This document shows positions 16,663 to 33,200 of a stretch of DNA of 64,000 bases, in pieces. The first letter of the stretch is position 1. Every line of letters starts with the position of its first letter. Source of the DNA: Candidatus Bathyarchaeota archaeon (GTDB taxonomy: Archaea; Thermoproteota; Bathyarchaeia; Bathyarchaeales; DTEX01); assembly GCA_025059045.1 (NCBI GenBank), contig JANXEA010000002.1, positions 10,798 through 74,797 on the forward strand, read 5' to 3'. Below the pieces are notes generated by a model. The model saw only the letters and a program-made list of their open reading frames with translations, was not told where the DNA came from and ran no database searches. A program made the translations under genes and the position numbers.

Positions 16663-19600
16663 ATGCATGGGTCCCGGAAGCTCTATGGATGGAAAGAGGC
16701 CGCTACATACATCCTTGCAGTCATACTTTTGGTGAACGCTCAAATTATTTCATCCGCATGTGAGCAGACCCCACGATCGATAGGCCGCATCTACATAAAA
16801 GTTACAGACGCAAACACAGGGGAACCTATCTCAAACGCAACTTTAATAATACTTGACATTACCACAGGGCTTGAGGAGTCAAAGATAAGGTCAACAGGTC
16901 AAAGCGGAGAGTACGTTTATGAGGAAGCGGTCCCTGAAGGGAAATATTGGATATACGCCTATAAGGGGAACTTGACTAGCGGTTATATGGAATATGCGCC
17001 TGCCGGACCATTTTTAATACATTTCTCAATCTTTGACACCGTGAAGAATCTGACGGTCCGGCTTGTTCCATGCGGAACCATCAGGCTTAAAGGTCCAATA
17101 TGGATGGCTGGCATATCTGAGCTACTAGAGAATTTTGCGGTGACGATTATTGACCCAGCCTGTGGAAAGCCTCCTATGTTAAATGGAGACTATATCAGCC
17201 AGTACAATTCTACAACAAGATTTTATCTTGCGGAGAAAGACTTGCTAAATAAGAGTCTCGTCTTCGTTCCTGCAGACGTTAACCTAGATCTGTTGGTGGA
17301 GGCCACATTCTATAGAAGAGAGGTGGGATTTAGATCCTTCTCGTTCAGGATTGAGAATGTCTCAGTCCGCAAGTCAGAGGAAGCCGCCTATGAACTCTCA
17401 TATTACAGTTTACGTGAGAGCATTAAAGATGTGAATAGTGTTGTCCAATCGGTCATGGAGGAGTTATCTTTTCTCCAGAGTATCGGTTTCTACTTTGTGC
17501 AAGAACGGTCAAATCTAGTGGAGCAGATCAGCACGATAAATGATGCGAGGAGAGAATTGGATAGGCGGGACTATTATGAATGTTGGAAGGCCCTTAGCAA
17601 AGCTTACAGTGAAAGTCTAAGTGTTAGAGAAACCCTGCGTTATTATGTTGGGGTGAGTACTCAGAGTGCGGTTTACCTTCCTACATTCCTAGCCGTTTAT
17701 AGCGTAATACTTGCTTTCTTCCTCTTTGAGGATGACCGGAAAAAAGTTGCTGCCAGCCTCATATTTTATATAGTATTTCTCGTGGCCCTATTCCAAATTT
17801 ATCCTGGTACAAGAACCATAATTAACCCAGAGACTGGAAACATTCGTTTATTTTTGTCAGCCTCTATTCTATCCATAGTCTGTGTAATGGTGCTAGTATT
17901 TTTCCTGCAGCGCCGACCGAGGCTTGGAATTGAAGGTTTAACGACGTTCAGGGATGTACTGGCCACGTTCTTCTCAATGGGGAAACGCCAGATAAGAGTA
18001 AGAAGATCTAGAGGGATCCTCACATTATCATCTGTGATCCTTCTGATCCTAGCATTCACCTCACTAACTTCTATGGGATATATTTATGGGCTAACATACG
18101 AGAAGATACCATACACATCGAACGTTGAGGGGATATTGATAAGGTCGACAGGAAATGAAACATTCATTTATGGACAGAATGTTTATAGGCTTTTTATTCC
18201 ATTCGGATCCAGCCTTGTGTACGCTCTTTCTCAAGATCCCGCAGTCGAGCATGTCGCTCCAAAGATAGAATCATATCCCAGCACAGAACCTATTGGAAGG
18301 CTCTTCTCAAATAGATCATCATTATCGATTTACGGTTTGATCGGCATAGTGCCAAGTGATGAGGCGCAATTTACAAGACTGAACAATGCGATCGTGAATG
18401 GCGAATACCTAAAAGACGGAGACCTTGAAGGATTACTCATAAGCAGCGAAGCGGCTTCAGAATTAGGAGTAAACAGTGGTGATAAGGTTATATTCTCGAT
18501 TGGAGGAATTGTCTCAAACTTTACAGTCCGAGGGATTTTCGGCAGCACATCCTACCAGCAGTTAAGGGATATAGATGGGCAGCCGTTTGGACCTAAGAAG
18601 GCTGCATTTTCCAACGGCACCATCTCATACTCATTATGTGAGCCGAAAGAAGTCATAATATTAAACTTTGAAGCGGCGCTGGAACTTCAGGCAAAGATAA
18701 ACGTTCAGAATAAAAGGGCTCCTGAAGAACCAGGCCCCCTCAATCAGCTCTCCAGAATATCAATAAAGCCTAAGCCAGCTGCGGACATAAAAGGTATGGT
18801 CGAGACCATTGTGAAAAGCTTCGGCAAAGACGCTTATGTCTCTAAAGATGGTGCAGTATACCATTATTACATTGGGTTTGCTTATGAGGCAAAGGGAGCT
18901 CTTGAAATCCTTGTTCCACTGGTGATGGCCCTCATAAACGTCGGCGCCGTCATGCTCAACGCAGTTTACGAGAGAAGCAAGGAGATGAAGATTCTGACGA
19001 CAATGGGATCAAATCCCATGCAGCTCGCTTCATTATTCATTGCGGAGGCAATGACGCTTGGAATGGTTGGTGGTGGGCTCGGATACATTTTCGGCCTAGG
19101 ATTCTACCGTATAATGCTCTTGACTGGAACTGGAATCGAAGTTAGAGAAAAAGTGGAATGGTATTGGAGCGCCATATGTCTATGTCTGGCAGTCTTGGCT
19201 TGTGTTCTCTCTACACTAAGACCAGCTCTACTCGCGATAAAGATGTACACACCATCAATGGTTCGGAAGGCGAAGATCTCTGAAGAGGAGAAGGAGACGA
19301 GAATGGAGGAGATTTTCAAAGTATATCAGGAGAGAAGCATGTCCATGCCAGTAAAAGTGAAGGAAGCGGAGATACTCATATTCACGACTTTCATAAAGTC
19401 AAGAATGGAGGAGATGAGATCAGGAATCTACGAGAGGATTGAAGACGTGGTGGATGAACCTGAAGTACAAACGCCCACTGGTAGGGTCGTACGCAAAGTA
19501 AAGTTCAGATACAATTGCCCACAGGAAAACCTAAAGATAAATAATGAATTAGTATGCAGCAAAGACAAAGGAGAAGACAAGTATAGGGTCCATCTAGTAC

Positions 19601-19713
19601 TTAATACTGACCGAATAGAGATATCGGAAAAGTGGATCTACAGAATCACTGATCTAATCCGCGACATTCTAATGGAATGGGTTCAAAACAAGGACAAAAT
19701 ATTAGGCAGATAA
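16663..19713 (+). CDS. CarboxypepD_reg-like ectodomain fused to a MacB/FtsX-type permease and the same class of C-terminal cytoplasmic domain
   Basis: 1016 aa.
- N-terminal anchor, then IYIKVTDANTGEPISNATLIILDITTG (carboxypeptidase-regulatory-like beta-sandwich).
- FtsX N-terminal TM: KRQIRVRRSRGILTLSSVILLILAFTSL.
- FtsX core: LNAVYERSKEMKILTTMGSNPMQLASLFIAEAMTLGMVGGGLGYIFG.
- Tail YTPSMVRKAK...MPVKVKEAE resembles VTPSLER.WK...IPLKVEHFE of the giant proteins. Confidence 0.8.
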   Translation: MHGSRKLYGWKEAATYILAVILLVNAQIISSACEQTPRSIGRIYIKVTDANTGEPISNATLIILDITTGLEESKIRSTGQSGEYVYEEAVPEGKYWIYAYKGNLTSGYMEYAPAGPFLIHFSIFDTVKNLTVRLVPCGTIRLKGPIWMAGISELLENFAVTIIDPACGKPPMLNGDYISQYNSTTRFYLAEKDLLNKSLVFVPADVNLDLLVEATFYRREVGFRSFSFRIENVSVRKSEEAAYELSYYSLRESIKDVNSVVQSVMEELSFLQSIGFYFVQERSNLVEQISTINDARRELDRRDYYECWKALSKAYSESLSVRETLRYYVGVSTQSAVYLPTFLAVYSVILAFFLFEDDRKKVAASLIFYIVFLVALFQIYPGTRTIINPETGNIRLFLSASILSIVCVMVLVFFLQRRPRLGIEGLTTFRDVLATFFSMGKRQIRVRRSRGILTLSSVILLILAFTSLTSMGYIYGLTYEKIPYTSNVEGILIRSTGNETFIYGQNVYRLFIPFGSSLVYALSQDPAVEHVAPKIESYPSTEPIGRLFSNRSSLSIYGLIGIVPSDEAQFTRLNNAIVNGEYLKDGDLEGLLISSEAASELGVNSGDKVIFSIGGIVSNFTVRGIFGSTSYQQLRDIDGQPFGPKKAAFSNGTISYSLCEPKEVIILNFEAALELQAKINVQNKRAPEEPGPLNQLSRISIKPKPAADIKGMVETIVKSFGKDAYVSKDGAVYHYYIGFAYEAKGALEILVPLVMALINVGAVMLNAVYERSKEMKILTTMGSNPMQLASLFIAEAMTLGMVGGGLGYIFGLGFYRIMLLTGTGIEVREKVEWYWSAICLCLAVLACVLSTLRPALLAIKMYTPSMVRKAKISEEEKETRMEEIFKVYQERSMSMPVKVKEAEILIFTTFIKSRMEEMRSGIYERIEDVVDEPEVQTPTGRVVRKVKFRYNCPQENLKINNELVCSKDKGEDKYRVHLVLNTDRIEISEKWIYRITDLIRDILMEWVQNKDKILGR

Positions 19714-19859: not shown

Positions 19860-22800
19860 ATGAGATACCATGCCTTAATTCTAGCATTATTCATCTTATT
19901 AGCATCATCAATTTCGCATGTAGGAGCTACAGCTGTAAAAGAGAGGGTAATGGGTCAAAGTACGGAGAGAGCTACTCTAGATTGGAGTTACCGGGGATAT
20001 TCCGTTGCAAGCTTACTGGCTGAGCGGGAAGGTTTCGCCAAGGATGTCACTGGCGGGTTAAACGGTAGAGTATACCGTGTGACTTCGCTCTCCCCAGCGA
20101 GTGGTCCTGGAACGTTAAGAGAGGCAGTTTCATTGCCTGAGCCATTATGGATTGTGTTCGATGTGAATGGAACCATAGACCTTGGAAACGAGGAACCTTT
20201 GTACATTAGATCAAATAAGACGATTGATGGAAGAGGCGCAGAAATCGTGATTGCAAGGAAGGGGGTTAGAATAGATTTTCAACAGAACATCATAATAACT
20301 AACATACGCTTCGAGAATGTCGGCGGCGATATTATAGAGATCAGAGGAGAATCCACACTGATCTGGATCCATCACTGCGACTTCATGAATGGGAACGATG
20401 GAGCAATAGACATAGTGAAGACCGCTGGACCAAGTGTAGATGTAACGGTCTCATGGTGTAGATTCTGGTGTCACAAGAAAACTATGCTCATAGGTGGAGA
20501 TGCATGGGAACAAGAGGTGAAGAATGTTCGCTTAACACTTCACCATAACTACTTCTTCATCACCGATCAGCGCAACCCAAGGATCAGATGGGGAAAAGTT
20601 GACGCGTATAACAATTATCTTTATGGCTGGCGCGATTATGGAATGGGCGCAAGCATGTACGGAGAGCTACTTGTTGAGGCAAATGTCTTCGAGGCATTAG
20701 AAAACAAGGAAGCGGTGGTGGCTCCTGTGGGCTCAGGAGGCGAGCTGGACTATCCTGGATATGTGAGGCTGAAGGATAATCTATTCCTTAATGGGGCGAT
20801 AGCTAAAGTTGGCCCGGGATACTCCGGACTTGTCTTTAGACGCGAGGACTATTACACCGCCAAGATAGAACCTGCAACAGAAGGATTAAAACTTAAGATA
20901 ATGGCGCAGGCGGGAACAAATATACCATTCCAGCCGAGAATAATGGTTAACCTCAAATCTGTGGATGATCCATACCCATCAAAACATTACCTAAACAGGA
21001 CAGATATCTATGTCGGAAACACCACGGCAAGGTACTACTGCATCATCGAGCCCTATAGAACCCCCTCAGATAAGATTGTCAGATGTGATTGGGACTTCGG
21101 CGACGGAACAAAACTAACGGTAACAAATGTAGTCCTCTTCCATGATCCATCCGTCACCTACACTTACAAGCAACCAGGAACATACACAATAAAAGTTACA
21201 CTAACGACTGCGGATGGAAGAACAATAACACTAAGTGAAGAGGATGTAATATTGCCTGCAGAGACGGGTGGTGCTGGTGGTACAGGTGGAACTGGTGGGG
21301 CAGGTGGAACTGGTGGTACGGGAGGAACTGGTGGTACAGGTGGAACAGGCGGGGTAGGTGGAATAACCGCGCCCAGCGATGCTCCATGGCCAATGGGACA
21401 GCGTGATCTTTCCCGCTCAGGTTATACGAGCGATCTAGGCCCGGCGACTAATGAGTTATTATGGGTGTTCGATACGGGCACGTATGGCGAGCCTATTAGA
21501 AGCGGCGTCTCAATTGCATATGGAATAGTGTACTTCGGCTCCGACAACGATTGCGTATACGCCGTAAATGCGACTACTGGACAGATGATATGGAGGTTTA
21601 ACGTTACAGAGTTCACAGGCACCGGAAAAGCGGACGTGAGAAGCACACCAGCAATCTCCGATGGTAGAGTATACTTTGGCAGCAGAAACGGCGTCTTCTT
21701 CTGCCTAGACGCCTACACAGGCGCCGTCAAATGGTACTATATTCCAGTCGATGAGGACGGAAAGAATGTCTCTATCTTCCGCAGCTCTCCAGCGGTCGTA
21801 GAGGGCAGAGTTCTCTTCGGAACTAGGGAAAAATCCGGAAAGCTTTACTGCCTAAACGCGACGAATGGTCAAGTGATCTGGAGGTTCGCCGCGGAGAATG
21901 AGATAGACTCAAGCCCAACAGTAGTAAAGGATAGGGTGTACTTTGGCTCCGACGACGACTACGTCTACTGTGTAAACCTGTATACTGGCGAATTAATTTG
22001 GAAGACGAATGTAGGCAGCAATGTGATCAGGGCGCCAGTATACTACAATGGGCTATTATTCGCCGCGTCTCAGGGATTAGAAAGAATATTCGCCCTTAAC
22101 GCAACCACAGGCGAAAACATTAGAAACTACACGATCATGGGGTATCCGAAAGGCGGCGTCGCGGTTGGAAGCGGCAAGCTGGTTATTACAGGGGTAACAA
22201 GCGGAACCGTCTACTGCTTCGACATTGAGACGGGTCAGCGGCTTTGGAGTTACGGAACGGTTGGACTTGAAGCCTACGCAGCCATACCTGTAATCGCACG
22301 GGACATAGTCTACTTAATCGCTCCAGACGCTGCAATTCATGCGGTAGACCTGAACACCGGCCAAATGATATGGAAATATGTTACAGATCCTGCCCAGTAT
22401 TGGAGATGTGATGAGGCTTATGGTGCTATTGCGTATGGCTGCCTGTTCATCGGCGCCGGGGACGGCAAGCTATACTGCTTTGGAAGACCGCCAAACCTTC
22501 CGATGAAATTGACTGCAAAAGTAATATGGGCGAATGGCTCAGCGGTCATAGGTGCAAAAGCCACGATATCAAACGGGACGAACACGTTTACCCAGAACAT
22601 AAGCGCATCAGGGGAAGCAACATTCAGTATCTTCAGGGGCAACTACACGGTGAAAGTAGAATATGGATCCATCCCACTCTATGTGGGCACAATCGATCTT
22701 CAGCGTGACACTACAATAACAGTAACGCAATATCCAGAATTATTACAGTATGCAATCCAACTTCAAAGCCAAATAGCTAGTCTCCAAAATCAGGTCAATA

Positions 22801-22949
22801 ATCTTCAGAGCCAGGTCAATCAATTACAATCTGACAAGTCAAGTCTCCAATCACAAGCATCCAATAGCCTCTACATGGGTCTAGGAGGCGGTGCGGGAGC
22901 CGGCCTAATAATCGGCATAATCATCGCCTACATCTTGAAGAAAAGATGA
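19860..22949 (+). CDS. Secreted multidomain protein: PL1 pectate lyase, PKD-like domain, Gly/Thr linker, PQQ-like beta-propeller, coiled-coil stalk, C-terminal TM anchor
   Basis: 1029 aa with a signal peptide.
- PL1 motifs: SNKTIDGRG, LIWIHHCDFMNGNDGAIDI, RNPRIRWG.
- PKD-like: CDWDFGDGTKLT...YTYKQPGTYTIKVTLT.
- Repeated A-x-D/N-x-x-TG-x-x-x-W blades (VYAVNATTGQMIWRF, LYCLNATNGQVIWRF, VYCFDIETGQRLWSY and others).
- Coiled coil: QLQSQIASLQNQVNNLQSQVNQLQSDKSSLQSQ.
- Tail: LYMGLGGGAGAGLIIGIIIAYILKKR. Confidence 0.85.
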   Translation: MRYHALILALFILLASSISHVGATAVKERVMGQSTERATLDWSYRGYSVASLLAEREGFAKDVTGGLNGRVYRVTSLSPASGPGTLREAVSLPEPLWIVFDVNGTIDLGNEEPLYIRSNKTIDGRGAEIVIARKGVRIDFQQNIIITNIRFENVGGDIIEIRGESTLIWIHHCDFMNGNDGAIDIVKTAGPSVDVTVSWCRFWCHKKTMLIGGDAWEQEVKNVRLTLHHNYFFITDQRNPRIRWGKVDAYNNYLYGWRDYGMGASMYGELLVEANVFEALENKEAVVAPVGSGGELDYPGYVRLKDNLFLNGAIAKVGPGYSGLVFRREDYYTAKIEPATEGLKLKIMAQAGTNIPFQPRIMVNLKSVDDPYPSKHYLNRTDIYVGNTTARYYCIIEPYRTPSDKIVRCDWDFGDGTKLTVTNVVLFHDPSVTYTYKQPGTYTIKVTLTTADGRTITLSEEDVILPAETGGAGGTGGTGGAGGTGGTGGTGGTGGTGGVGGITAPSDAPWPMGQRDLSRSGYTSDLGPATNELLWVFDTGTYGEPIRSGVSIAYGIVYFGSDNDCVYAVNATTGQMIWRFNVTEFTGTGKADVRSTPAISDGRVYFGSRNGVFFCLDAYTGAVKWYYIPVDEDGKNVSIFRSSPAVVEGRVLFGTREKSGKLYCLNATNGQVIWRFAAENEIDSSPTVVKDRVYFGSDDDYVYCVNLYTGELIWKTNVGSNVIRAPVYYNGLLFAASQGLERIFALNATTGENIRNYTIMGYPKGGVAVGSGKLVITGVTSGTVYCFDIETGQRLWSYGTVGLEAYAAIPVIARDIVYLIAPDAAIHAVDLNTGQMIWKYVTDPAQYWRCDEAYGAIAYGCLFIGAGDGKLYCFGRPPNLPMKLTAKVIWANGSAVIGAKATISNGTNTFTQNISASGEATFSIFRGNYTVKVEYGSIPLYVGTIDLQRDTTITVTQYPELLQYAIQLQSQIASLQNQVNNLQSQVNQLQSDKSSLQSQASNSLYMGLGGGAGAGLIIGIIIAYILKKR
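21267..21362 (+). repeat. In-frame tandem 9-bp (GGT GGN ACN) repeat encoding a (GGT/GGA)n linker
   Basis: 96 bp reading ggtggtgct ggtggtaca ggtggaact and so on. It encodes GGAGGTGGTGGAGGTGGTGGTGGTGGTGGVGG between the PKD-like domain and the propeller. Confidence 0.9.
22404..22480 (+). repeat. 77-bp exact DNA repeat, copy 1 (inside the propeller of ORF 19860)
   Basis: agatgtgatgaggcttatggtgctattgcgtatggctgcctgttcatcggcgccggggacggcaagctatactgctt is base-for-base identical to 24223-24299. It encodes RCDEAYGAIAYGCLFIGAGDGKLYCF. Confidence 0.9.
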
Positions 22950-22960
22950 AGAACCCTTTC

Positions 22961-22966
22961 TTTTTT
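22961..22966 (+). terminator. Oligo-T tract after ORF 19860
   Basis: ccctttcTTTTTTatt begins 8 nt after the stop codon. Confidence 0.35.
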
Positions 22967-23064
22967 ATTAAGCGACTCACAAAAAAGGAATCTGGTTTGA
23001 GAAAAAGCTTAAAAGTTAAACCATATTAATTAATAAGGAACTCTTAGTTAGGAGGAGATGAAAT

Positions 23065-24684
23065 TTGAGAGCGAAGCCGAAAACTGGCTTGAGAAAAACA
23101 TCGACTCTAATGATGGCATTCGCCGTCTTTTCAATCATGCTCTCTGCCACACTTCCGATTGTCAGGGCATCAGCAAGCTCCAGTGGCACATATTACGCTT
23201 GGCCTATGGCAGGATATAATCTGCAACGAACCGGATATACGGATGAGGCGGGGCCGAAAACAAATAATACGTTATGGATATTTGACACGGGAAGCGTCGG
23301 TCAAGGAATAAGATGTGGTGTTGCTGTTGCATATGGGATCGTCCTCTTCGGATCAGATGACGATAACATCTACGCTGTTAACGCCTCGACCGGGACGCTG
23401 ATCTGGAAATTTACAGCCACGGGGTCCACGCCAGATATGAGAAGCACTCCGGCTGTGGCTGATGGAAAAGCATACTTCGGCTCAAGAAATGGGACACTAT
23501 TCTGCGTAGATGTCTTTACAGGCGCGCTGATCTGGAAGTTCGTGGTGCCGCCGACACCTGGGACAACATATATTCCCATCATGCGTAGCTCCCCGGCAGT
23601 GGCTGATGGAATGGTTGTAACGGGAGTGAAAGGTAGGGGATTCTACTGCTTAAATGCGACAACCGGGGCCGTCATATGGAACTTCACTACTGGAGATGAG
23701 GCAGACGTCAGTCCAGCCATAGCTGATGGAAAGGTATACTTTGGGTCAGATGATGATCAAGCTTATTGCCTAGACCTGAAAACCGGAGCTCTACTCTGGA
23801 ATAGGACCTTAAATAGTAATGTGCTGCGCATAGTAACCTACTATCGAGGGCTGGTTTTCGCTTCTGTGCAGGCGGCTCCTGGAGTAGCTGACGGCATAGT
23901 TTATGCCCTTAACGCGACAACGGGTGAGGTTGTAAGAAATTACACGTTAATTAATGGTGGGAACTTGAGAGGCGGCGTCGCAGTTGCAGGCGACAAACTC
24001 GTTGTATCCGGGAGCCATAATGGCATAGTATACTGCTTTGACATCGAAACTGGGCGACTGATTTGGAACTACTCCCTGGGCGTAGTAGGGGCCTGGTATA
24101 ATATACCGGCAATAGCCAAAGACACCGTCTATATCATAGGTAGGGACGCGATTATCCATGCGATAGACCTAGGCACTGGACAGGCTATCTGGAAGTATCA
24201 GACAGACGTGTTCCATGCGACCAGATGTGATGAGGCTTATGGTGCTATTGCGTATGGCTGCCTGTTCATCGGCGCCGGGGACGGCAAGCTATACTGCTTC
24301 GGAGCTCCCCGCAACGATATCTACTTAGAGATGCTTAGATACATATCTCAAATCTCGCAACTACAATCCAACATAAGCAGCCTATTGAGTGAGAGAAGTA
24401 CCCTACAAAGCCAGATTAATACTCTACAGGGTCAAGTGTCTAGCCTCCGGAACAGCGTGAATCAGCTGCAAGGACAAGTTACAAATCTTCAGAACCAAGT
24501 TAGTCAGTTACAGTCAGAGAAGGCAAGCCTCCAGAGTCAGGTCGATAAATTGCAGACTGACAAGATCAATCTCCAGAATCAGGCGACAAATAATCTTTAC
24601 ATGGGTTTAGGCGGTGGAGCAGCGGTTGGCTTGGTAATCGGAGTAGCCATACCCTCATTTTTAAGAAGAAATAGATCCAGTTAA
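23065..24684 (+). CDS. Secreted PQQ-like beta-propeller protein with long coiled-coil stalk and C-terminal TM anchor (paralog of the C-terminal half of ORF 19860)
   Basis: 539 aa with a signal peptide (TTG start). It has the same blade repeats (IYAVNASTGTLIWKF, FYCLNATTGAVIWNF, VYCFDIETGRLIWNY, IHAIDLGTGQAIWKY). It also has a ~90-aa Q/L/S heptad region and the tail LYMGLGGGAAVGLVIGVAIPSFLRRNRSS. Confidence 0.85.
   Translation: MRAKPKTGLRKTSTLMMAFAVFSIMLSATLPIVRASASSSGTYYAWPMAGYNLQRTGYTDEAGPKTNNTLWIFDTGSVGQGIRCGVAVAYGIVLFGSDDDNIYAVNASTGTLIWKFTATGSTPDMRSTPAVADGKAYFGSRNGTLFCVDVFTGALIWKFVVPPTPGTTYIPIMRSSPAVADGMVVTGVKGRGFYCLNATTGAVIWNFTTGDEADVSPAIADGKVYFGSDDDQAYCLDLKTGALLWNRTLNSNVLRIVTYYRGLVFASVQAAPGVADGIVYALNATTGEVVRNYTLINGGNLRGGVAVAGDKLVVSGSHNGIVYCFDIETGRLIWNYSLGVVGAWYNIPAIAKDTVYIIGRDAIIHAIDLGTGQAIWKYQTDVFHATRCDEAYGAIAYGCLFIGAGDGKLYCFGAPRNDIYLEMLRYISQISQLQSNISSLLSERSTLQSQINTLQGQVSSLRNSVNQLQGQVTNLQNQVSQLQSEKASLQSQVDKLQTDKINLQNQATNNLYMGLGGGAAVGLVIGVAIPSFLRRNRSS
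24223..24299 (+). repeat. 77-bp exact DNA repeat, copy 2 (inside ORF 23065)
   Basis: Identical to 22404-22480, whereas the flanking paralogous sequence is clearly diverged. Confidence 0.9.
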
Positions 24685-24736: not shown

Positions 24737-25957
24737 ATGCTGTTGTTGGAGAAAAGAATAATGAGATCGCTCTGTATAAAAACGATGGCTGGTCTAGTAT
24801 ATATCTGCATTCTTTTTACGGTTTCCAATACACTAACATTGAATTCGATGGCATTGGTCTCCGACGCTACATTTTTTCACGTTTTCACAAACCCTGATTG
24901 TGAAGGCTGTATGAATGCGATTCAGCCGCTTTTAAATATTTTTCCTAGGGAAACGATAATATATGACATTAAGGACAGCAAAAATCTAGAGGTCCTAATA
25001 GGCATTCTTGAACAGACAGGTATGGAAAGCCCCATCCTTCCGCTTATACTAATTCTCAAAAATGATACTTTATTCGCTGTCGTAGAATTCCGAAGGGTCA
25101 TATTCTCGCAGGATGACTGGATCGTCGTAACCGAGACTAAATACGACAGAGTGCCAGTATATTTCGGTAAAGATGGATATGGAGTGGTTAAGCCGGAAAC
25201 ATTCCTAGAAGATATAGTTTGTCAGCGAATAGCCAAGCTGCTTACTGATAAGAGCGTTGACGAATTAGCGACTGGACTTGATTTCCAAATGTTCATACCT
25301 GCAATTGTGGCAGCGGCGTTAGCAGATGCAATCAACCCATGCGAGTTCCACGTTCTAATAATATTTCTCACACTCGTAATCTTCAATATGGGAAAGAAAG
25401 CGGTCCTAAGAGCCGGGCTAACTTACTCAGCAGCCATCTTCACTATATACTTCGCTCTTGGTTCGGGAATGAATGTTTTGCTGAGATACTCTCATCCGCT
25501 TAAGCCTATTATGGCTATGATTGTTGGAGTTGCCTCGATAATATTAGGTTTGCGGGAGATGGTTGCAGTAACGCTGGGAAAAAATATTTCACGAGTACCG
25601 ACGTCAATATCCGATAAGTTGTCCTCTCTTCTGCAAAAAAACTTTGCTACCTCCTTAGGTTCCTTCATTGTTGGAGCGGTTGCTGGAATACTACTTCTCC
25701 CTTGCACATCCGCCCCCTACTTCGTTGCTCTTTCTCTGATTTCACGAACAGAGACCATTATTCAAGGCGTAATTTTGCTCTTCATATACAACATCATTAT
25801 CATAGTGCCCTTCCTGTTGATCACATTGATGACTTACACTTTTGACCTTAAGACCAGTCAGCTTAAAAGATGGTTCAAGAAGACTGAGAGATCCACGGGT
25901 ATGACGCTTGGGCTAATTTATCTTGCGCTAGGTCTCTTATTGTTTTCCTTCATGTAG
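24737..25957 (+). CDS. Thioredoxin-like CxxC domain fused to a DsbD/CcdA-type thiol-disulfide transfer membrane domain
   Basis: 406 aa with an N-terminal anchor and an ectodomain carrying NPDCEGCMNA (CxxC). The membrane domain has the two DsbD/CcdA cysteine motifs ADAINPCEFHVLI and LLLPCTSAPYF. Confidence 0.7.
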   Translation: MLLLEKRIMRSLCIKTMAGLVYICILFTVSNTLTLNSMALVSDATFFHVFTNPDCEGCMNAIQPLLNIFPRETIIYDIKDSKNLEVLIGILEQTGMESPILPLILILKNDTLFAVVEFRRVIFSQDDWIVVTETKYDRVPVYFGKDGYGVVKPETFLEDIVCQRIAKLLTDKSVDELATGLDFQMFIPAIVAAALADAINPCEFHVLIIFLTLVIFNMGKKAVLRAGLTYSAAIFTIYFALGSGMNVLLRYSHPLKPIMAMIVGVASIILGLREMVAVTLGKNISRVPTSISDKLSSLLQKNFATSLGSFIVGAVAGILLLPCTSAPYFVALSLISRTETIIQGVILLFIYNIIIIVPFLLITLMTYTFDLKTSQLKRWFKKTERSTGMTLGLIYLALGLLLFSFM

Positions 25958-26099: not shown

Positions 26100-28163
26100 A
26101 TGAGCGAGGAAAGAATACATGCAAGGGTTTCCCCGATAGAGATCTTGGTGCTCATACTTCTGGCGTGGGTCTTCTTTTCTGTAGGCTACATTACAAGAAC
26201 TTTCTCACCAGCTAAATACTGGGTTGTAGACGGGATGTTCGTGCCATACATCTATGTGCTGCTCATCCTTGGGTTGATCGGTAAGCGTGGAATAAGAGGC
26301 AGAGGTGTTAGTAAAGAATTCGCGGTCTCCTTAGTCTTTGTATTAGCCATATTGACCGGAAAGTTTTTCTTCTTCGCGGGGTCGCCGGATGCCAATTTCA
26401 TAGACGTGATTGCTGGAACATACAGCAGCTGCATTGTAGCCCCCATCTTTCCATCAGGCGCTGCAGACTATGTTCGGCAACTACTGCCAGCGTGGCTGGC
26501 CCCACATTACGCAGAAGATGTCGCTAGCTACTATCGAGGAGGCGGCGGGCAGAACTGGTCTGTTCTGATAGGCCCAATAATCTCTTGGACGCTTCTGCTA
26601 ATCTCCGTCGTGCTAGTAACATGGCCCATGCTATTCCTAATACTTGGTCCATATTGGCATGACACGGAGAGGATACAGTTTCCTATGGCGCTGCCAGCGG
26701 TGTACCTCACTAATAACACATTTCCAGTTTCGGAGCATGATAATGCTGAATGGCTGTCAATCTTCAATCTTGCCAGTGCAAGAAACAAGGCTTTCTGGGC
26801 GGCTTTCTTAATCGGGTTGGTCCTTAATGTACCGTTCATAATCTCACAGGTTGCGCCACAGGTTCCACTCGGAGCGGTGGTCGGCGGAGGATACGGAACA
26901 TATCCAATCAACCTTGGCCCATACTTTAGCGGTATGCTTCCATCAGCTCATCTTTCGGGCCAGATCGTCGTATACCTAATTCTCCTATACGCTATCCTAC
27001 CATTAGACATTTCAGCTTCAATAGCTATCGTGGGAATGTTCTTCAGTCTAATCTACAGACCTCTCGTTGTAAGTTCAGGAATAGTCAGAGGCACGGATCC
27101 CGGTCAAGTCTGGCCCATTCCACATCTGGAGTTTAGGGTGGGCTCTTACATTGGTCTTGGGCTAATAGCATTCTGGGCTACTAGAGACAGATGGATAAAG
27201 GCTTTCAAGTCACTTAGCAGGGACTTCCAAGTCGACGGCGTCTCAATGAGGGCGGGAATGCTACTAATGTTTGCAGGCGTAATTATGATGCTGGGGATAC
27301 TGACAGCGGCGGGAGGAAATCTCTTCATGCAGATAATATGGTTCCTCCTCTTCACCCTTATAAACGTCGGATGCGCATACATATGGGCCAACTCGATATG
27401 GCTTGGTGGGGACTGCCATGGATACATGAGCTGGAGACTTGGACATTACATTGGCTCGAGCATCGGCGTATGGTCTGCTTCGGCGCCCCAAATGAACCAG
27501 GCTCTGGCGGTCTACAGTCTCTCATGCTCAAGCATGGGCCACTGCACCGGCGCATACCAGTCGAATAGCCCAATAGCCCCGCCCTTCATGGCAATAGCAT
27601 ACGGATATGCACGTGGCACTAACGCAAACATTAGGAAAGTCTTCCTCTACACAATAGTGCCCGTCATAGCGCTGGTTCCATTCGCATTGGTATTCAATAC
27701 ATATGTTAACAGCCACGCTGGAATAAGTAACCTTGGAGAATACAGCGGCAGCATTAGCTGGCTGGGAACGATTAGGGCTGTCCTCGACTGGGGCAACAGA
27801 AGCCTATCCTACGCGACAGGCGTAATGCCGTTCAGTCAATATTGGATAGCAACAATCATAGCGGCCGTGATAGTAATAGTGGTCGCAGCGCTCCGCTCAT
27901 TCCTTCCATGGTTCTTCCTACATCCAGTTGGCTTTGCAATCGGCTTCGCTGGGTTAGGAGGCTGGAACTTCTGGCTCAACGCCGTTGTAGGCATAGCCTT
28001 AAGGATTTCGCTAAGCAAGATTCTAGGTCCAAAGAGAACGATGGAATATCTAGTCCCGATTTTAGCTGGTCTGGCAATAGGCTTAGGTGCATTATACCTG
28101 ATCGTCGGCATCTATGTCCTCTGCACAAGTTCAATCCCGAATCTGTTGACGCTTTGGAAGTGA
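26100..28163 (+). CDS. Polytopic membrane protein, module B gene 1 (paralog of ORF 2410)
   Basis: A 687-aa hydrophobic ORF with motifs RGVSKEFAVSLVF and HDTERIQFPMALPAV at positions equivalent to ORF 2410. A T7 tract follows the stop. Confidence 0.8.
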   Translation: MSEERIHARVSPIEILVLILLAWVFFSVGYITRTFSPAKYWVVDGMFVPYIYVLLILGLIGKRGIRGRGVSKEFAVSLVFVLAILTGKFFFFAGSPDANFIDVIAGTYSSCIVAPIFPSGAADYVRQLLPAWLAPHYAEDVASYYRGGGGQNWSVLIGPIISWTLLLISVVLVTWPMLFLILGPYWHDTERIQFPMALPAVYLTNNTFPVSEHDNAEWLSIFNLASARNKAFWAAFLIGLVLNVPFIISQVAPQVPLGAVVGGGYGTYPINLGPYFSGMLPSAHLSGQIVVYLILLYAILPLDISASIAIVGMFFSLIYRPLVVSSGIVRGTDPGQVWPIPHLEFRVGSYIGLGLIAFWATRDRWIKAFKSLSRDFQVDGVSMRAGMLLMFAGVIMMLGILTAAGGNLFMQIIWFLLFTLINVGCAYIWANSIWLGGDCHGYMSWRLGHYIGSSIGVWSASAPQMNQALAVYSLSCSSMGHCTGAYQSNSPIAPPFMAIAYGYARGTNANIRKVFLYTIVPVIALVPFALVFNTYVNSHAGISNLGEYSGSISWLGTIRAVLDWGNRSLSYATGVMPFSQYWIATIIAAVIVIVVAALRSFLPWFFLHPVGFAIGFAGLGGWNFWLNAVVGIALRISLSKILGPKRTMEYLVPILAGLAIGLGALYLIVGIYVLCTSSIPNLLTLWK

Positions 28164-28183
28164 TCAATCGCTTCCACCCATTA

Positions 28184-28190
28184 TTTTTTT
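28184..28190 (+). terminator. Oligo-T tract after module B gene 1
   Basis: ccattaTTTTTTTaat lies 21 nt after the stop. It mirrors the T7 tract after module A gene 1. Confidence 0.35.
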
Positions 28191-28308
28191 AATGCCTCAA
28201 CCGTTTGAGGGTGTCCAATGAAGTTGAATAGCAAAATTCTTAAGATCCTGCAAATGATTATACCGAAGGAAGCCGCCTAGTTCCAACATACGGCTAGAGA
28301 GTGGATGA

Positions 28309-30210
28309 ATGAAGCCGAAGACGGGGCTAAGTTGGCGGATCATTCTGGCGATGGTAACATCGATCTTCCTCTTCATTCCAGTCAACATCTACTCATACTT
28401 TATTACTGGTGTTGTTCAAGGGTCCGTGGCGGTCTTCTTCATAACGCTGGTATTCTCGGAGATTGTCAGGCTTACTGGCTCAAATCTTTCAAGACAGGAG
28501 GTTCTCATACTATACTACGCAGCAGCTTGGGGAGGCACCGCGATGCCAATATACTACAACATAATTTATAGAACATTTTTTGTTAACTCGCCGCTTATCA
28601 GCTCCTACTCCATCTCCGGGAGACCGCTTATCGAGTATATTCCCACATGGCTTGTTCCTCTTCCCGGATCATACTCTGCCCGCACATTCTTTCAACCAGC
28701 TTTCTTAACGCCGCTTATCGTATGGTTCGTTTGGAGCGTCCTAATGCTGGCCATTACAATCTTCCTCTCAATAATGGCCTCCCACATCTACGTTGAGAGA
28801 CTGAATTATCCATTCCCATACGCTGTTGTAGATGCTTCGATAGCGACCTTTCTAGGCGAGAGACCGAGAGAATATGTGAAGTACTTTATTCCCGCGTTCA
28901 CCGTCGGCGTCATTTTCGGTTCGATAGCCTATCTGCCCCTTTCATTCGGCGGCGTGCTCATACCAATACCATATCTTGACCTAACAGGCATTATAGAGGA
29001 GATGCTTCCTGGAGCCCTCTTAGGGCTAGTCACCGTCTTATCATCATATTTTGGGGGGCTAATTGTACCAGTTAACCAGACAATCCCAATGCTCATCTCC
29101 TCCATCTTAATATGGATTATCATGAATTCGCTCTTCATAACAACCTTTCCTGGGGCAGCTCCAGAATGGGTTAGAGAATACTCGAAGGGAATGGGGCTTA
29201 TTGCCGTCCAGAACCGATCATATCTTCGGATATGGTTTGCACCGCAGATAGGCTTCACAATCGCCGCCTCAGCCTTCCTCATTCTCTTCGAGGCTAGGAA
29301 GCCGATAGTTGAAGCCCTAAAGGAGATGTTCCATGCAGGGGGCTCCGAGCAGCCTGGAGTAATGGTTGGGCTACCATCGCTTAGAGTGTCATTTCTTTTA
29401 TGGTTGTTATTTGGCTGCTTATCTGTAGTCTATTTCCACATTCTTGTACCCGAAGTCAGTCTCCTAATACCCATCCTCTACGTGTTCCTTTTCGGTTTCT
29501 TCATAGCAATGGTTGTAACCGCGTTTAGAGGTGAGACGGGTTTTTCTGTTCCTGGGCTTCCAGGATGGACTTGGCACACACTAATATACTTCTCACCATA
29601 TCAAGGATACGCCGGCTTCATATTAGAGCCTCCGGCAATAGACTCTGGCGGGCCAGCGTACTTTTCCCAGCAGGTTAAGGCATCGTCAAACGTGGGTGCA
29701 AGGCCCAGAGACCTTCTCATAGTATGGGTGCTTGGATACTTCCTTTCCCAGTTATCCGGTCTCATCTCGCTGGATTTCTTCTGGAGAATAGCGCCAATCC
29801 CGTCATCTGCATACCCCTTCACAGTCTACAGCGCGCTTAGCTCCGCATATAACGATGCGATGATTGTGTCTAGACAATTGAAAATAACCTTAGAGAGCAT
29901 AGGATTGCCGGCGCTAGCCCTGTTCGTGGCCTTGATAATCGGGGATCAGATCTCAAGGGTAATAGGCCTTTCTTTTCCGATTGTGGGCTTAGTTATGGGT
30001 TTATACCTTCCTCCCCACTCCGTTATCCCACTCTTCATCGGATCCCTGGTCAGCCGATACCTAGCCCCTAAACTTTTCGGCGGGGCGGAAAGATGGCGGT
30101 GTATAATGGGCTATATTGTTGCAGGAGAGCTTTCAGGAGAAGGTTTAATGCTTATGCTTAACGTTGTCCTAGCTCTCATGTATAAGTCGGCGTGGATGTG
30201 GCCATGGTGA
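28309..30210 (+). CDS. Polytopic membrane protein, module B gene 2 (paralog of ORF 4790)
   Basis: 633 aa. It aligns with ORF 4790 along its length (SRQEVLILYYAAAWGG, ERLNYPFPYAVVDASIATF, PGALLGLVTVLSSYFGGLIVP versus PGAVIGISTDISSYLLGFIVP). Its 3' end overlaps the next gene by 19 nt. Confidence 0.8.
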   Translation: MKPKTGLSWRIILAMVTSIFLFIPVNIYSYFITGVVQGSVAVFFITLVFSEIVRLTGSNLSRQEVLILYYAAAWGGTAMPIYYNIIYRTFFVNSPLISSYSISGRPLIEYIPTWLVPLPGSYSARTFFQPAFLTPLIVWFVWSVLMLAITIFLSIMASHIYVERLNYPFPYAVVDASIATFLGERPREYVKYFIPAFTVGVIFGSIAYLPLSFGGVLIPIPYLDLTGIIEEMLPGALLGLVTVLSSYFGGLIVPVNQTIPMLISSILIWIIMNSLFITTFPGAAPEWVREYSKGMGLIAVQNRSYLRIWFAPQIGFTIAASAFLILFEARKPIVEALKEMFHAGGSEQPGVMVGLPSLRVSFLLWLLFGCLSVVYFHILVPEVSLLIPILYVFLFGFFIAMVVTAFRGETGFSVPGLPGWTWHTLIYFSPYQGYAGFILEPPAIDSGGPAYFSQQVKASSNVGARPRDLLIVWVLGYFLSQLSGLISLDFFWRIAPIPSSAYPFTVYSALSSAYNDAMIVSRQLKITLESIGLPALALFVALIIGDQISRVIGLSFPIVGLVMGLYLPPHSVIPLFIGSLVSRYLAPKLFGGAERWRCIMGYIVAGELSGEGLMLMLNVVLALMYKSAWMWPW

Positions 30211-33200
30211 AGCATGCTCTAGATTGTGGAAAGATCTCGGCGTTGGCACTAGCGGTAACCTTCATTCTCTCCTGGAGCCCGGTTTGTTGCGGAGCAATCG
30301 AGGCGGGATCACGCATAGGCGGTGGTGCAGCATGGGTAATCGTCGATGACATAAGCCTTGATAATATTAAGTCGCATGTCAAATTCTTCTCTTCTCTGGG
30401 GACAAGGGTTACAGGTTATGAGGGATGCAGGCTTGCATCTGAGTATATAGAGTTGTTTTTCAGAGATCTAGGGCTCCAAGTGCTGGTTCACGATTACTGG
30501 ACGCCGATCCCAAAAGATGAGGGCTCATACATCATTGTTAATGATGGTGCTAATGCAGGTTCAAATTTCACTGCATACTCTCTCTGGCCTAACGGTGGGC
30601 TCTCATGCATCTCAGGAGGGTTCAAGGGTAAGATAATTTATTGTGGAGAAGGTACGCTCGAAGAGATGAGCGGCCTAGACGTCAATGGCTCTATAATATT
30701 ACTCGACTTTAACTCTGGAAGAAACTGGATCAATGCTGCTAAGCTGGGAGCGAAAGCAGTAATCTTCATTGAGCCTTCATTCACCACGAAATATGAGGCG
30801 CTTGCTAAGGGTTCACTTTCTCCACTTGAGTTTCCGCGACTATATGTTAAAAGGGATGTGGGGCTGAAACTTAAGGAGGTGGCTGACAGCAATGGCACGG
30901 TCACAGTACATGTAAGAATGCGATGGGTGAATGCTGAGGCAAGAAATATTGTCGGAATCCTGGAGGGTGACAGCAAAGAAGACGTTGTAATTTTCTCTGC
31001 CCATTATGACTCATGGAGCATAGTACCTGCTATTTCGCCATCATCTGAAGACTCCATAGGCATCTCCATCCTCCTTGAGATGGCAAGATACTTCAAGATG
31101 CACAAGCCCAGGGCAACAATATGGTTTGTTGCCTATTCAGGCCACTGGGAAGGAACCGTCGGAGCTGTAAAGTTCGTGGAGGATACTCTCTTGAGCTCCA
31201 ATAAGAGAATTTGGATCCAGCTGGGTCTAGATATTTCAAGCGAATCGCCAAAAATGGATTGTCTATATGTAAGTTCAGTCTACGGATCAATGGAGCCTAG
31301 CTATGCTTGGGGGGCTGGTGAAAGAAACACGATCTTCGCCCTAACGCAAACTTATGTGCAGAGATTTTACCCGCTAAGATCCTGGTTCCAGAGATTACTC
31401 GACGTGTCGATTAGAGACCTAAGATTAGAAAATTATGTTCCGGAAGATGTTAAGAAACTGGTTAATCTTGTCAATTTCGGCCTTACATATGAATCCAGAT
31501 TCGGCACCCAAGACGATTTCTACATGCTTGACACGGAACCAGCATTGTCGGCCTCGATGATGTCGGTTACATTAAAGACTCAGTATGGTAGGAGGATCTC
31601 TTGGCTCAGCCCACTTGACCAAGGTATAGACTGGACAAAGATTTGGCCACAGGTCATAACTGCCACGACACTGGCTCAAGGAATTGCTAACAGAAACTTT
31701 GATGTTGATCCTCCTTACGCCTACAGCGACGTCTCGCCTAAAAGATGGTCTCAGCTCCAATTTGGGCTGGCATCTATGGGTTATAGTACACTTTCGGGTA
31801 AGACTGTTGAATTCAGCAATTACACTGGCTGGTATGAGCCAGTGCCATGCTCCCTCGTTAGGCTGCAGATATATGAGAGCCAAGCCCTGAATGCATGGCC
31901 ATTCGCATACAGGTACACGATCAGCGGAGAGGATGGAGGATTCGTTTTTCATGGGCTGGTGCCCCTAGTCTCATGGCAGATCGATGCGTGGAAGTTTAAC
32001 CCTATAAGTGGGTCTGTCGAGTATGCTGTTGATCAGGGATTTTATGGCACCGCGCAGCAGGTTGCAGGCGGGCTCCGAACAACCGTGTTTCCTATCACGC
32101 CAAATGTAAGCGCGCTTGTTCCACTGTTCAAATGTAAGCATGTTACACTCTTCGATATGATTGACTATTTCGGCCTTACGGAGTTAATTGTGAGAGATTA
32201 TAGAAACCCAAACCACAGCTACCTGAACATGTACATATCTTCGGCGACGAGATTTGCCGCGCTTTCAGGAGGTATAGGCGTCTATGGTTTTGGATTAGGC
32301 ATCTACGCTACAGACTCAAAATCTTCACCAATCTTTTATGGCGCATTTATGGGGGCTGATGGGATAGCCAACATATACGTGAAGGAAGGAGAGAAGATAA
32401 CCGTCGCCTTTAACCCTAACTCAGATGCATACTCCTGGCCCACCATGCTAATGTCAAATAGCACGGCAGACAATCCCGAAGGAAATGGAATCACGGTCTC
32501 AGAGAATGTTGTGGTCACATTGACGGTTTACCGTGCTGCGTTGGATATGTACCGAATAGCCAAGAGCAGATATGAGAGCTTCGCCAAGTTCAATATTCGG
32601 GTAGCCTTTGCCGAGCAGATGCTTGAAAAAGCCCTCAAATATATAATTATGGCGAACAACTCATATTCGGCAAAGGATTATGAGGGCATATACGCCAATT
32701 CATACCGAGCCCTACAATACTCCTATAATGCCTACGCAAACGCCGCCATGCCCCTATACCATGAGGCTGCAAACTCTCTAATCTTCTTCTCCCTACTAAT
32801 CCTCCCATACTCCGTGCTTCTCGAAAAGATGATTATCCAGTTAAGATCATCTAAGAGGTTTATAGGGATCCTCGGCTTTGCACTCCTGACCTTCGGCATC
32901 TACTCAGCGGTTCACCCAGCGTTCTCAGTCATGACGAATTCACTGATGACCGTGATAAGCGTCGGCGTATTCATCCTGCTGGCTGCGATACTCGTTATAT
33001 TCCTAACCGAGCTGAAAGATCTGGTTGAAGCGGTCAGCGTGAGCCTCCTAGGTGAGCATATCTTCAAGACAGGTCGAGTATCAACGATAATGCATACTAT
33101 CACATACTCTGTTGAGAGTATGCGAAAAAGAAAGATGCTGTCAGCATTGGCCATGATAACCATAACATTTGTTACGGCTGCTATGACAGCTTTCACCTCA

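Follow-up and report, generated by a model that had tools for sequence, protein, structure and literature searches.

A stalked C-terminal tail shared by surface proteins of Bathyarchaeia: a probable glycine-zipper membrane anchor

Proteins A and B, encoded by 2 neighboring genes in a 64,000-nucleotide stretch of DNA from a Candidatus Bathyarchaeota archaeon (GenBank assembly GCA_025059045.1, contig JANXEA010000002.1, positions 10,798 to 74,797; hereafter the window), are predicted surface proteins that end in one and the same C-terminal tail, in which a juxtamembrane N-x-L-Y motif, a glycine-rich transmembrane (TM) helix, and a short basic cluster follow upon a coiled-coil stalk. To judge from its sequence, this tail is a portable module under selection, beyond what a mere hydrophobic anchor would need to be, and we estimate at a probability of roughly 0.6 that it is a retained type I anchor whose coiled-coil stalk continues into an oligomerizing glycine-zipper helix. 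The same 2 genes are annotated by NCBI on contig JAVQTO010000003.1 of GCA_033581255.1, a metagenome-assembled genome (MAG) entered as "MAG: Nitrososphaerota archaeon" in which the record of protein B is exact, and the nearest relatives of A, B, and their neighboring genes are found in MAGs of Bathyarchaeia or Bathyarchaeota.

Conservation and distribution of the tail and its stalk

Six-frame translation of the window returns the tail motif exactly twice (...QASNSLYMGLGGGAGAGLIIGIIIAYILKKR and ...QATNNLYMGLGGGAAVGLVIGVAIPSFLRRNRSS), and both copies show the tripartite organization that an earlier reading of the bare sequence (hereafter the original prediction) had ascribed to them, i.e., N-x-LYMGLGGG followed by a hydrophobic helix and a basic cluster. 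Our inventory of further tails is based on an exhaustive HMMER search with a tail-only profile and on 2 DNA scans with the back-translated pattern N-L-Y-M-G-L-G-G-G; a word-indexed search with a tail-only profile gave mostly tiny fragments, and the inventory does not rest on it. Among 1.84 billion representative proteins, the tail-only profile has 21 matches at E ≤ 0.001, all of them ending no more than about 10 residues from the C-terminus. The DNA pattern is present at 8 loci of the GTDB species representatives (5 of Bathyarchaeota or Bathyarchaeia, one of an "uncultured archaeon", one of Njordarchaeota, and one bacterial chance match that is not an open reading frame [ORF]) and at 25 loci in metagenomes, including 4 chance matches. 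Each matched GTDB genome has the motif once, a count that refers to the strict pattern and to MAGs. Since GCA_033581255.1 is not a species representative, its own copies lie outside the GTDB scan, and on contig 8 of this MAG there is a third tail copy, that of protein P0003, which brings the genome to at least 3 copies, all on propeller paralogs.

Further proteins with an LYMGLGGG-TM-basic ending were thus found both in the same MAG (P0003) and elsewhere, on at least 5 unrelated types of passenger. The motif is not a peculiarity of the 2 paralogs in the window, which, together with the absence of any sortase-like enzyme, was the case in which the original prediction would have seen a plain TM anchor: it recurs in P0003, in other passengers of Bathyarchaeia, and in one Njordarchaeota MAG. 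Its commonest carriers are ATP-binding cassette (ABC)-type solute-binding proteins (SBPs) of the SBP_bac_8/6 type, and it is also found on PQQ-like propellers (A, B, P0003, P0006, P0131, and P0135), a 378-aa DUF4350/ABC_transp_aux-like protein, a CN_hydrolase (nitrilase-like) protein, and PKD-rich and cohesin-like proteins. The only clear case outside Bathyarchaeia is an SBP of a Candidatus Njordarchaeota MAG, a member of the Asgard archaea (L007, 5103-6749; tail ..AQRNLYMGLGGGFIIGLIIGIIGAAVYYRRK..); horizontal transfer or faulty binning could account for it. At one locus (L041), 3 genes with stalk and tail stand in a row upstream of a membrane cassette described below and include the degenerate variants TRFYMGIGGGLIIGLVVG and INLFGGGIVGLVIG; the degenerate tails at 470-3313 (..NTRFYMGIGGGLIIGLVVGVA..WKK) and 3902-5104 (..AVINLFGGGIVGLVIGVILAFIGLRKKG) of this locus are borne by a protein with 5 PKD domains and a cohesin-like protein, respectively. 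These variants indicate that the family is wider than the strict NLYMGLGGG motif, so that all tail counts given here are lower bounds.

Across 30 unique tails, the residues L0, Y1, G3, G7, G11, and G15 are invariant (yielding G-x3-G-x3-G-x3-G), N-1 is present in 29, and the arginine/lysine cluster is fixed at positions +23 to +26, with L..AQA(Q/S/T)NNLYMGLGGG(L/V)VVGLIIG.AIAY...RRK as the consensus. All 30 have at least 3 small residues at positions i, i+4, and i+8 of the membrane helix and therefore qualify as glycine zippers. The invariant positions with period 4 run through the helix, which argues that the constraint extends through the membrane segment and is not limited to a signature in front of it. 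Tails of unrelated passengers are about 50% identical, the same level as within groups of related passengers. At the DNA level, 6 of the 11 codons for N-x-LYMGLGGGA differ synonymously between A and B, and this divergence beneath an unchanged peptide indicates purifying selection on the tail peptide and rules out gene conversion between the 2 copies.

The stalk lengths of about 40 and 90 residues given in the original prediction agree well with the approximately 44 residues of A (958-1001) and 91 residues of B (418-508) that we find. In B, the heptads x-L-Q-x-Q-[VI]-x have leucine at position d in 11 of 12 and isoleucine or valine at position a in 8 of 12, a regularity matched by none of 5,000 shuffled sequences, while the 6 heptads of A were reached in 18 of 5,000 shuffles; the heptad periodicity that speaks for a coiled coil is thus well beyond chance in both proteins. 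An AlphaFold2 model of B predicts a single continuous helix from residue 418 to residue 535, with a predicted local distance difference test score (pLDDT) of 77 to 91 in the stalk. At 0.15 nm per residue, a fully helical stalk would measure approximately 13 to 14 nm in B and 6.6 nm, plus a beta-sandwich, in A, and stalk length varies about 10-fold among members of the tail family. An origin of the stalk from tandem DNA repeats can be discarded, since the (GGT)n linker of A is the sole place where Tandem Repeats Finder (TRF) detects a repeat.

In every member of the family, a helical segment, usually a coiled coil of heptads, directly precedes the tail and none has a linker rich in serine, threonine, or proline, in contrast to the PEF-type tails of the same propeller family, which follow such non-helical sequence. 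Among 36 propeller homologs with a C-terminal TM helix and basic end, 4 glycines at period 4 are confined to the 2 NNLY proteins, while 10 have PEF and 9 have PEG/S. A further contrast to the NNLY tail is provided by the gene divergent to that of P0003 in the same MAG (L035, 8266-9855, minus strand), which encodes a 529-aa protein with propeller and PKD domain and a stalk-less, plain TM-RRKK tail (DPYLIAGIGVVAVIAVTVIFAVVRRKK). From this paralog and from the restriction of the glycine zipper to NNLY proteins, we conclude that stalk and NNLY tail travel together. SBP carriers keep, past the basic cluster, the cytoplasmic extension (R/K)(R/K)E[IV]AAV(E/K/R)A (genes listed in Table 1), which persists across SBPs that are 33% to 60% identical and is missing from non-SBP carriers.

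A retained anchor, a sorting signal, or a docking device

According to the reading that we favor, A and B would be Sec-exported, N-glycosylated type I membrane proteins of a Bathyarchaeia-like archaeon. After Sec export, the C-terminal helix and basic cluster would cause stop-transfer, and the last 35 or so residues would stay on the mature protein as a juxtamembrane N-N-L-Y, a TM helix with a 4-fold glycine zipper, and a basic stop-transfer cluster at the constant position +24. The coiled coil would oligomerize and the glycine-zipper face would carry this association into the membrane, creating a parallel homo-oligomeric rigid rod that fixes the ectodomain in the membrane and lifts it by about 7 to 14 nm or more. 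The ectodomains held in this way would be PL1, PKD, and propeller in A and the propeller alone in B, so that domains binding or cleaving polysaccharides would be placed outside the cell and beside the transporters encoded alongside, and the same module would serve ABC solute-binding proteins and other ectoenzymes of the lineage. The domain architecture, the heptads, the predicted helix, the pattern of conservation, the modular spread, and the lack of a curated family model are shown by the present analysis; tail retention, oligomerization, stalk height, and the pectin-directed role discussed below are the parts of this model that we infer.

A retained anchor is favored by the 4 invariant glycines at period 4, by the obligatory helical stalk upstream of them, and by the cytoplasmic extension of the SBP carriers, the conservation of which would be hard to explain for a tail that is discarded. 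It is also favored by the fact that we find no sortase-like or rhomboid-like gene among the ORFs of the 64-kb window (analyzed with Pfam) or at the 22.7-kb L035 locus, together about 87 kb of the genome. Likewise, all-versus-all ORF clustering around the approximately 30 tail loci revealed no recurrent processing enzyme; apart from genes for ABC ATPases and permeases, what recurred were spurious antisense ORFs. Furthermore, the resemblances of the tail to curated families are mostly to membrane helices of the retained kind.

These resemblances are weak (E=0.1 for ElaB, E=5e-4 for YtxH, and E=0.13 for the TM domain of ErbB4 in the PDB), and none of them attains significance or a curated cutoff; a profile run against PDB sequences found nothing significant, with ErbB4 as its best match. 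What the tail has in common with ElaB/YqjD-type anchors, YtxH, and dimers of ErbB TM helices are glycines at positions i, i+4, i+8, and i+12 on one face of the helix. We take ElaB, YtxH, TIGR04211, and ErbB4 to represent mostly retained glycine-zipper, tail-anchor, or dimerizing helices, and the pattern -G-[LI]-G-x-G-A-A-V-G-L-V-[LI]-G- of B is closely similar to the C-terminus of ElaB. However, ElaB is tail-anchored in the cytoplasm whereas the tail of A and B is attached to an exported ectodomain, and the lineages differ. The best curated match for stalk and tail of B is TIGR04211 ("SH3_and_anchor"; residues 428-538 against positions 80-193 of the 198 of the model, E=2e-11), which has the same order of coiled coil, glycine-rich TM anchor, and basic residues. 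Yet both proteins score below the cutoff of 65 bits (43.9 for B and 26.8 for A) and lack an SH3 domain, and the family is bacterial (E. coli YgiM type). The likeness is probably one of analogy, brought about by similar composition and architecture.

SlaB of the Sulfolobales, the membrane anchor of their S-layer, combines a Sec signal, beta-rich ectodomains, a coiled coil, and one C-terminal TM helix (PMC6911244). A and B have this same architecture, in which a stalk sets the distance from the membrane, and in this respect the comparison to S-layer stalk proteins made in the original prediction is apt. It does not extend to homology: the SlaB model NF040788 gives 31.9 bits for B, through the coiled coil only and against a cutoff of 700, and no match for A. 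Moreover, the ectodomains of SlaB are beta-sandwiches that bind the S-layer, while those of the A/B family are propellers, a lyase, and other enzymes. A comparable stalk protein is the tetrabrachion of Staphylothermus. Archaeal solute-binding proteins with C-terminal TM anchors such as the oligopeptide- and sugar-binding proteins of Sulfolobus are described as having these anchors behind linkers rich in serine and threonine, and we know of no conserved motif that they have in common. Both they and the NNLY-type SBPs are tethered by a C-terminal TM helix instead of a lipid, but the latter have a helical stalk and share NLY and the 4 glycines with proteins other than SBPs.

Several points weigh against a retained anchor. 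The combination of a motif, a hydrophobic helix, and a basic C-terminus is the hallmark of substrates of sortases, exosortases, and archaeosortases (PMC6098224), and the S-layer glycoprotein of Haloferax was long assumed to be TM-anchored until its ArtA-dependent processing was shown (PMC6098224). A glycine zipper by itself does not explain why the extracellular N-L-Y is invariant. In the AlphaFold2 monomer model, the TM part has a pLDDT below 50. Moreover, the heptads shift their register by one residue where NNLY begins to follow the stalk, so that a single continuous coiled coil of stalk and TM helix is not a necessity. Finally, the failure to find a processing enzyme covers only the approximately 87 kb of the source genome mentioned above.

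A tentative proposal to which we give clearly less credence is that stalk and NNLY/glycine-zipper tail are the address label of an unrecognized surface-protein system of Bathyarchaeia (with the Njordarchaeota copy as an outlier), acting either as a new sorting signal or through docking to a membrane cassette. In its first version, which seems unlikely to us, the tail would be a cleavable signal that a membrane enzyme, either similar to archaeosortases and exosortases or a rhomboid-type "rhombosortase", cuts at N-N-L-Y/G-L-G-G-G, with removal of the helix and basic cluster and joining of the stalk end to a lipid or the envelope. Substrates of archaeosortases and exosortases are exported by Sec or Tat and have a conserved motif at the extreme C-terminus that is followed by a hydrophobic helix and a charged cluster (PMC6098224), and the NNLY tail resembles archaeosortase signals like PGF-, PEF-, and PEP-CTERM in its tripartite layout with fixed spacing, its position at the extreme C-terminus, and its modular use on surface proteins of one lineage (at least 5 unrelated passenger types). 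Several copies can be present per genome or locus (at least 3 in this MAG, all on propeller paralogs, and 3 in a row at L041, with PKD and cohesin-like passengers), and the tail is conserved at least as strongly as its passengers. In addition, paralogous propellers of related archaea end in tails similar to PEF- or PEFG-CTERM, suggesting that endings are interchangeable on this propeller family and that the lineage may use signals of the sortase type. The glycine-rich start of the helix also recalls GlyGly-CTERM signals.

However, neither Pfam nor NCBIfam contains a model for the tail, and neither 4 tails nor 5 full proteins match any curated -CTERM sorting model even at E ≤ 10 (PGF-, PEF-, PEFG-, VPXXXP-, PEP-, MYXO-, Loki-, Heimdall-, GlyGly-CTERM, and others in NCBIfam), with the exception of P0126, which reaches 6.5 bits with GG_III. 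The same comparison does detect such signals elsewhere: tails of propeller paralogs (..[VI]PEF[PS]T..) match PEF-CTERM and PEFG-CTERM, though below the cutoffs, the tail of the 529-aa propeller beside P0003 passes GG_III-CTERM (NF041738; 24.5 versus 22 bits), and a tail of the MYXO type in the window, described below, passes TIGR03382. GG_III-CTERM describes a C-terminal, glycine-containing TM region and does not match A or B, and GG_III tails are devoid of stalk, NLY, and glycines at period 4. The archaeosortase analogy of the original prediction is sound only with regard to the tripartite layout, and the tail corresponds to no curated signal, in contrast to the PEF- and GG_III-type tails recognized on paralogous propellers. 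It also differs from archaeosortase signals by the lack of a proline signature, by invariant residues that recur at every fourth position as far as 12 positions inside the helix, and by an obligatory helical stalk in place of a flexible linker, and the conserved cytoplasmic extension of the SBP subgroup likewise argues against cleavage. That no candidate enzyme is encoded in the window, at L035, or recurrently near tail genes is another argument, even though sortases need not be linked to their substrates; the single occurrence of the strict motif per matched GTDB genome is a weak one, given the strict pattern and the use of MAGs. Signals of the glycosylphosphatidylinositol (GPI)-like or asparaginyl-endopeptidase type were dropped as unlikely candidates, the tail ending in a cytoplasmic basic cluster and having no small ω+1 and ω+2 residues.

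One other protein of the window has a tail of a different class: a 418-aa Zn-dependent phospholipase C-like protein (43053-44309, minus strand) ends in ...EEPIGVAALLAAAALSAASMILRRRRR, i.e., a TM helix followed by 5 arginines. This tail passes the generic model TIGR03382 (MYXO-CTERM/GC_trans_RRR; 20 versus 15.85 bits) and has a weak likeness to Loki-CTERM. The genome may thus also use a sortase-type signal of another class.

In the second version, which we regard as quite doubtful, stalk and tail would be a docking device in which the glycine-zipper helix packs against the TM domains of an adjacent transporter. For the propeller, PKD, and lyase proteins, the partners would be found in a cassette that comprises a DUF6785/6784-homologous polytopic protein of approximately 690 to 760 aa, usually an OPT-like protein of approximately 625 to 650 aa, and a giant M28-MacB_PCD-FtsX protein of approximately 1490 to 1540 aa, while binding proteins would dock to ABC permeases. 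The extracytoplasmic domain of FtsX-type proteins could grip the stalk as FtsEX does with the coiled coils of EnvC, PcsB, and CwlO, and such partnerships of FtsX-type proteins with coiled coils are an established precedent. A DUF6785/6784 gene indeed adjoins tail genes at 5 of the 7 non-SBP loci examined (the window, L035, L036, L037, and L041), accompanied by the giant at 4 of these; the short L036 contig ends just past its DUF6785/6784 gene. SBPs with the tail are encoded in ABC operons, and the DUF4350/ABC_transp_aux-like version adjoins ABC genes. Nevertheless, a single kind of tail would need to match membrane partners as different as permeases of ABC importers, ABC-2 systems, and FtsX giants. 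No such neighbor is present beside the tail genes of P0135 and P0136, and the first cassette copy of the window has no adjacent tail gene. Besides, the FtsX giants lack an accompanying ATPase (no ATPase gene beside them in the window, L035, L037, or L041), and the adjacency may merely reflect a common locus for substrate utilization.

Last, a trivial similarity, i.e., low complexity or shared composition of recent duplicates or gene conversion, would fit tandem paralogs like A and B and the compositional simplicity of helices made of glycine and hydrophobic residues, but this is hardly credible and in our view refuted by a profile that retrieves only 21 of 1.84 billion proteins, all near the C-terminus, by strict positional invariance across unrelated proteins, by the diverged synonymous sites of A and B, and by DNA-pattern matches that are nearly all real ORFs of Bathyarchaeia, the few chance matches being obvious non-ORFs.

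Proteins A and B and their genomic neighborhood

A and B are 47% identical over 533 columns (BLASTP, E=6e-152) in an alignment that spans from the propeller to the tail. The original prediction had described them as secreted or surface paralogs with a PQQ-like propeller, and this is borne out by their identity, by Pfam, and by signal peptides recognized on inspection. The propeller matches PQQ_2 and Beta-prop_ACSF4 in A (E=1e-40 to 1e-42) and is the sole domain of B; with PF13360 and PF13570, A reaches 138 and 144 bits and B reaches 148 and 151 bits, all above the gathering cutoffs of 27.6 and 133. Foldseek comparisons with the B propeller returned the designed 8-bladed Cake8, tetrathionate hydrolase, and BamB at approximately 1e-24 to 1e-26 and YxaL at approximately 1e-21. 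A PQQ-dependent dehydrogenase (TIGR03075) can be dismissed for both proteins at 84 bits each versus a curated cutoff of 480, and they also stay below the curated cutoff for BamB equivalogs.

Pfam confirms the PL1 lyase and PKD domains that had been predicted for one copy, and assigns them to A only; in the sequence of this predicted lyase, an R-N-P-R-I-R motif is visible. Two features of A had been missed earlier, namely the (GGT)n linker and the CarboxypepD_reg-like beta-sandwich. The linker is encoded by a tandem repeat of approximately 5 to 8 copies with 73% to 85% matches (21263-21363; GGAGGTGGTGG...), which is likely a site of length variation. The beta-sandwich is lacking in B and found in most non-SBP members of the tail family, with significant matches in P0131 (E=4e-15) and in a 947-aa protein of L041 (E=2e-10).

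Both proteins are enriched in N-glycosylation sequons (N-x-S/T), with 14 versus 6.7 expected in A and 11 versus 4.4 expected in B, which has the highest density in the window. This enrichment supports surface exposure and fits exported, glycosylated surface proteins of archaea. Elsewhere in the window, 2 small exported proteins (40149-40964 and 42184-43032, both plus strand) have 18.5 and 17.7 sequons per 1,000, respectively, both very high densities; in the latter, an N-terminal TM helix is followed by a protease domain of the Lon_C (S16) type.

Table 1. Coordinates of tail proteins, their parts, and neighboring or related genes (window positions unless a locus is named)
Feature	Position	Strand	Evidence
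Protein A (1029 aa): signal peptide, PL1, PKD, (GGT)n linker, 8-bladed propeller, beta-sandwich, coiled-coil stalk, NxLY/glycine-zipper tail	19860..22949	+	ORF list
A, predicted Sec signal peptide, aa 1-23, ...SHVGA/T	19860..19928	+	Inspection: basic n-region, hydrophobic core, small -3/-1 residues
A, PL1 pectate lyase, Pectate_lyase_4 PF00544, aa 113-277	20196..20690	+	79.3 bits vs cutoff 24, E=4e-22
A, PKD domain, aa 402-456	21063..21227	+	PF18911/PF00801, E=5e-9
A, Gly/Thr-rich (GGT)n linker at the junction of PL1+PKD and propeller	21263..21363	+	TRF: 9/18-bp tandem repeat
A, 8-bladed PQQ/BamB-like propeller, aa 510-875	21387..22484	+	PF13360 138 bits, PF13570 144 bits
A, CarboxypepD_reg-like beta-sandwich spacer, ~80 aa, aa 877-957	22488..22730	+	PF13620 E=0.002, sub-threshold
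A, coiled-coil stalk, aa 958-1001, 6 heptads, xLQxQ[VI]x	22731..22862	+	Heptad phase test
A, tail N-S-LYMGLGGGAGAGLIIGIIIAYIL-KKR + stop: juxtamembrane NxLY, GxxxGxxxGxxxG helix, basic cluster	22863..22949	+	Motif scan, tail profile
Protein B (539 aa): signal peptide, propeller, long coiled-coil stalk, tail	23065..24684	+	ORF list; AlphaFold2 model, mean pLDDT 85.7
B, predicted Sec signal peptide, aa 1-35, ...IVRA/S	23065..23169	+	Inspection; AlphaFold2 helix 13-28, then disordered segment
B, 8-bladed beta-propeller, aa 46-415	23200..24309	+	Pfam; AlphaFold2 strands 69-412
B, coiled-coil stalk, aa 418-508, 12 uninterrupted heptads	24316..24588	+	Heptad test, AlphaFold2
B, tail N-N-LYMGLGGGAAVGLVIGVAIPSFL-RRNRSS + stop	24589..24684	+	Tail profile: 73.6 bits, E=7e-16 in 1.84e9 proteins
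Cassette copy 1: 763-aa DUF6785/6784-homologous polytopic protein, 647-aa OPT-like protein, 1538-aa M28-MacB_PCD-FtsX giant	2410..11356	+	Pfam, homology
FtsX-type permease, 1016 aa, directly upstream of A	16663..19713	+	PF02687 E=1e-10; 23-24% identity to both giants
DsbD_TM-like membrane protein, N-terminal CxxC, 52 bp downstream of B	24737..25957	+	PF02683 E=1e-8
Cassette copy 2: 687-aa DUF6785/6784 protein, 633-aa polytopic protein, 1530-aa M28-MacB_PCD-FtsX giant (30192-34784)	26100..34784	+	Pfam, paralogy to copy 1
Cassette at L035	L035 1-8153		
DUF6785/6784 gene at L036	L036 2170-4428		
Cassette at L037	L037 13442-20087		
Cassette at L041	L041 8634-17340		
SBP genes with cytoplasmic extension	L002, L003, L005, L008, L010, L012, L014-L018, L020, L022-L024, L026, L027, L029-L031		

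The 2 cassette copies of the window are 26% to 34% identical to each other. The product of 2410-4701 is 66% identical to that of the gene following P0006, and the giants of L035, L037, and L041 all have their best match in 6740-11356. The cassette appears to be linked to tail genes of the A/B type, and a literature search found no paper that mentions DUF6785. The DsbD_TM-like protein encoded downstream of B has a thioredoxin-like CEGC motif and is not kept beside tail genes at other loci; the propellers, which are rich in cysteine (many YC.., CDEAYGAIAYGC), might be its clients.

The locus L037 is informative about the origin of protein A. Beside the gene for the stalked propeller P0131, it has a stand-alone PL1+PKD gene (11909-13351) with a plain TM tail of its own, the product of which is 49% identical to A (window 19860-21363) over the first 422 aa (E=4e-129). 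The presence of PL1+PKD and propeller as separate genes suggests that A arose by fusion of PL1+PKD, via the (GGT)n linker, to a unit of propeller, beta-sandwich, stalk, and tail similar to P0006. In the window, the regions 11378-16534 and 44375-49121 (both minus strand) form a setting of plant-polysaccharide use and encode a GH51 arabinofuranosidase, a BNR_2 protein similar to sialidases and arabinanases, a 771-aa protein that matches Melibiase_2 weakly, a fucose-isomerase-like protein, an FGGY kinase, and a split transketolase. L037 has counterparts of the BNR_2, fucose-isomerase-like, and FGGY kinase genes that are 63% to 72% identical, and adds GH28, GH95, and GH42-like genes (1-9690). Together, the fusion, the GH51 and BNR_2 genes of the window, and the GH28, GH95, and GH42-like genes of L037 suggest that A and B have a surface-tethered role in the degradation of pectin or arabinan, to which the propeller probably contributes by binding or as a scaffold.

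Implications for the surface of Bathyarchaeia

C-terminal TM anchors, coiled-coil stalks like that of SlaB (PMC6911244), and glycine zippers are all known. What is new is their combination into one conserved, portable, and lineage-restricted module that is described by no curated family, and a literature search found no paper that combines glycine zipper, archaea, and solute-binding protein. The tail is thus a candidate for a curated family model, which neither Pfam nor NCBIfam has at present. The fusion of PL1+PKD to a stalked propeller further suggests that the widespread and obscure "PQQ-like" propellers of archaea cooperate with enzymes that degrade polysaccharides. If the tail were a processing or docking signal, it would constitute a new system among the few archaeal mechanisms of protein anchoring and would give the first functional clue to the cassette of DUF6785/6784 and M28-FtsX proteins.

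Bathyarchaeia are among the most abundant archaea of anoxic sediments. To our knowledge, there is little cultured material of them, and next to nothing has been described of their envelope or surface proteome. The tail signature offers a sequence handle for listing part of this surface proteome from metagenomes, and it provides a testable model of how ectoenzymes like the PL1 lyase and the binding proteins of transporters may be placed at set heights above the membrane.

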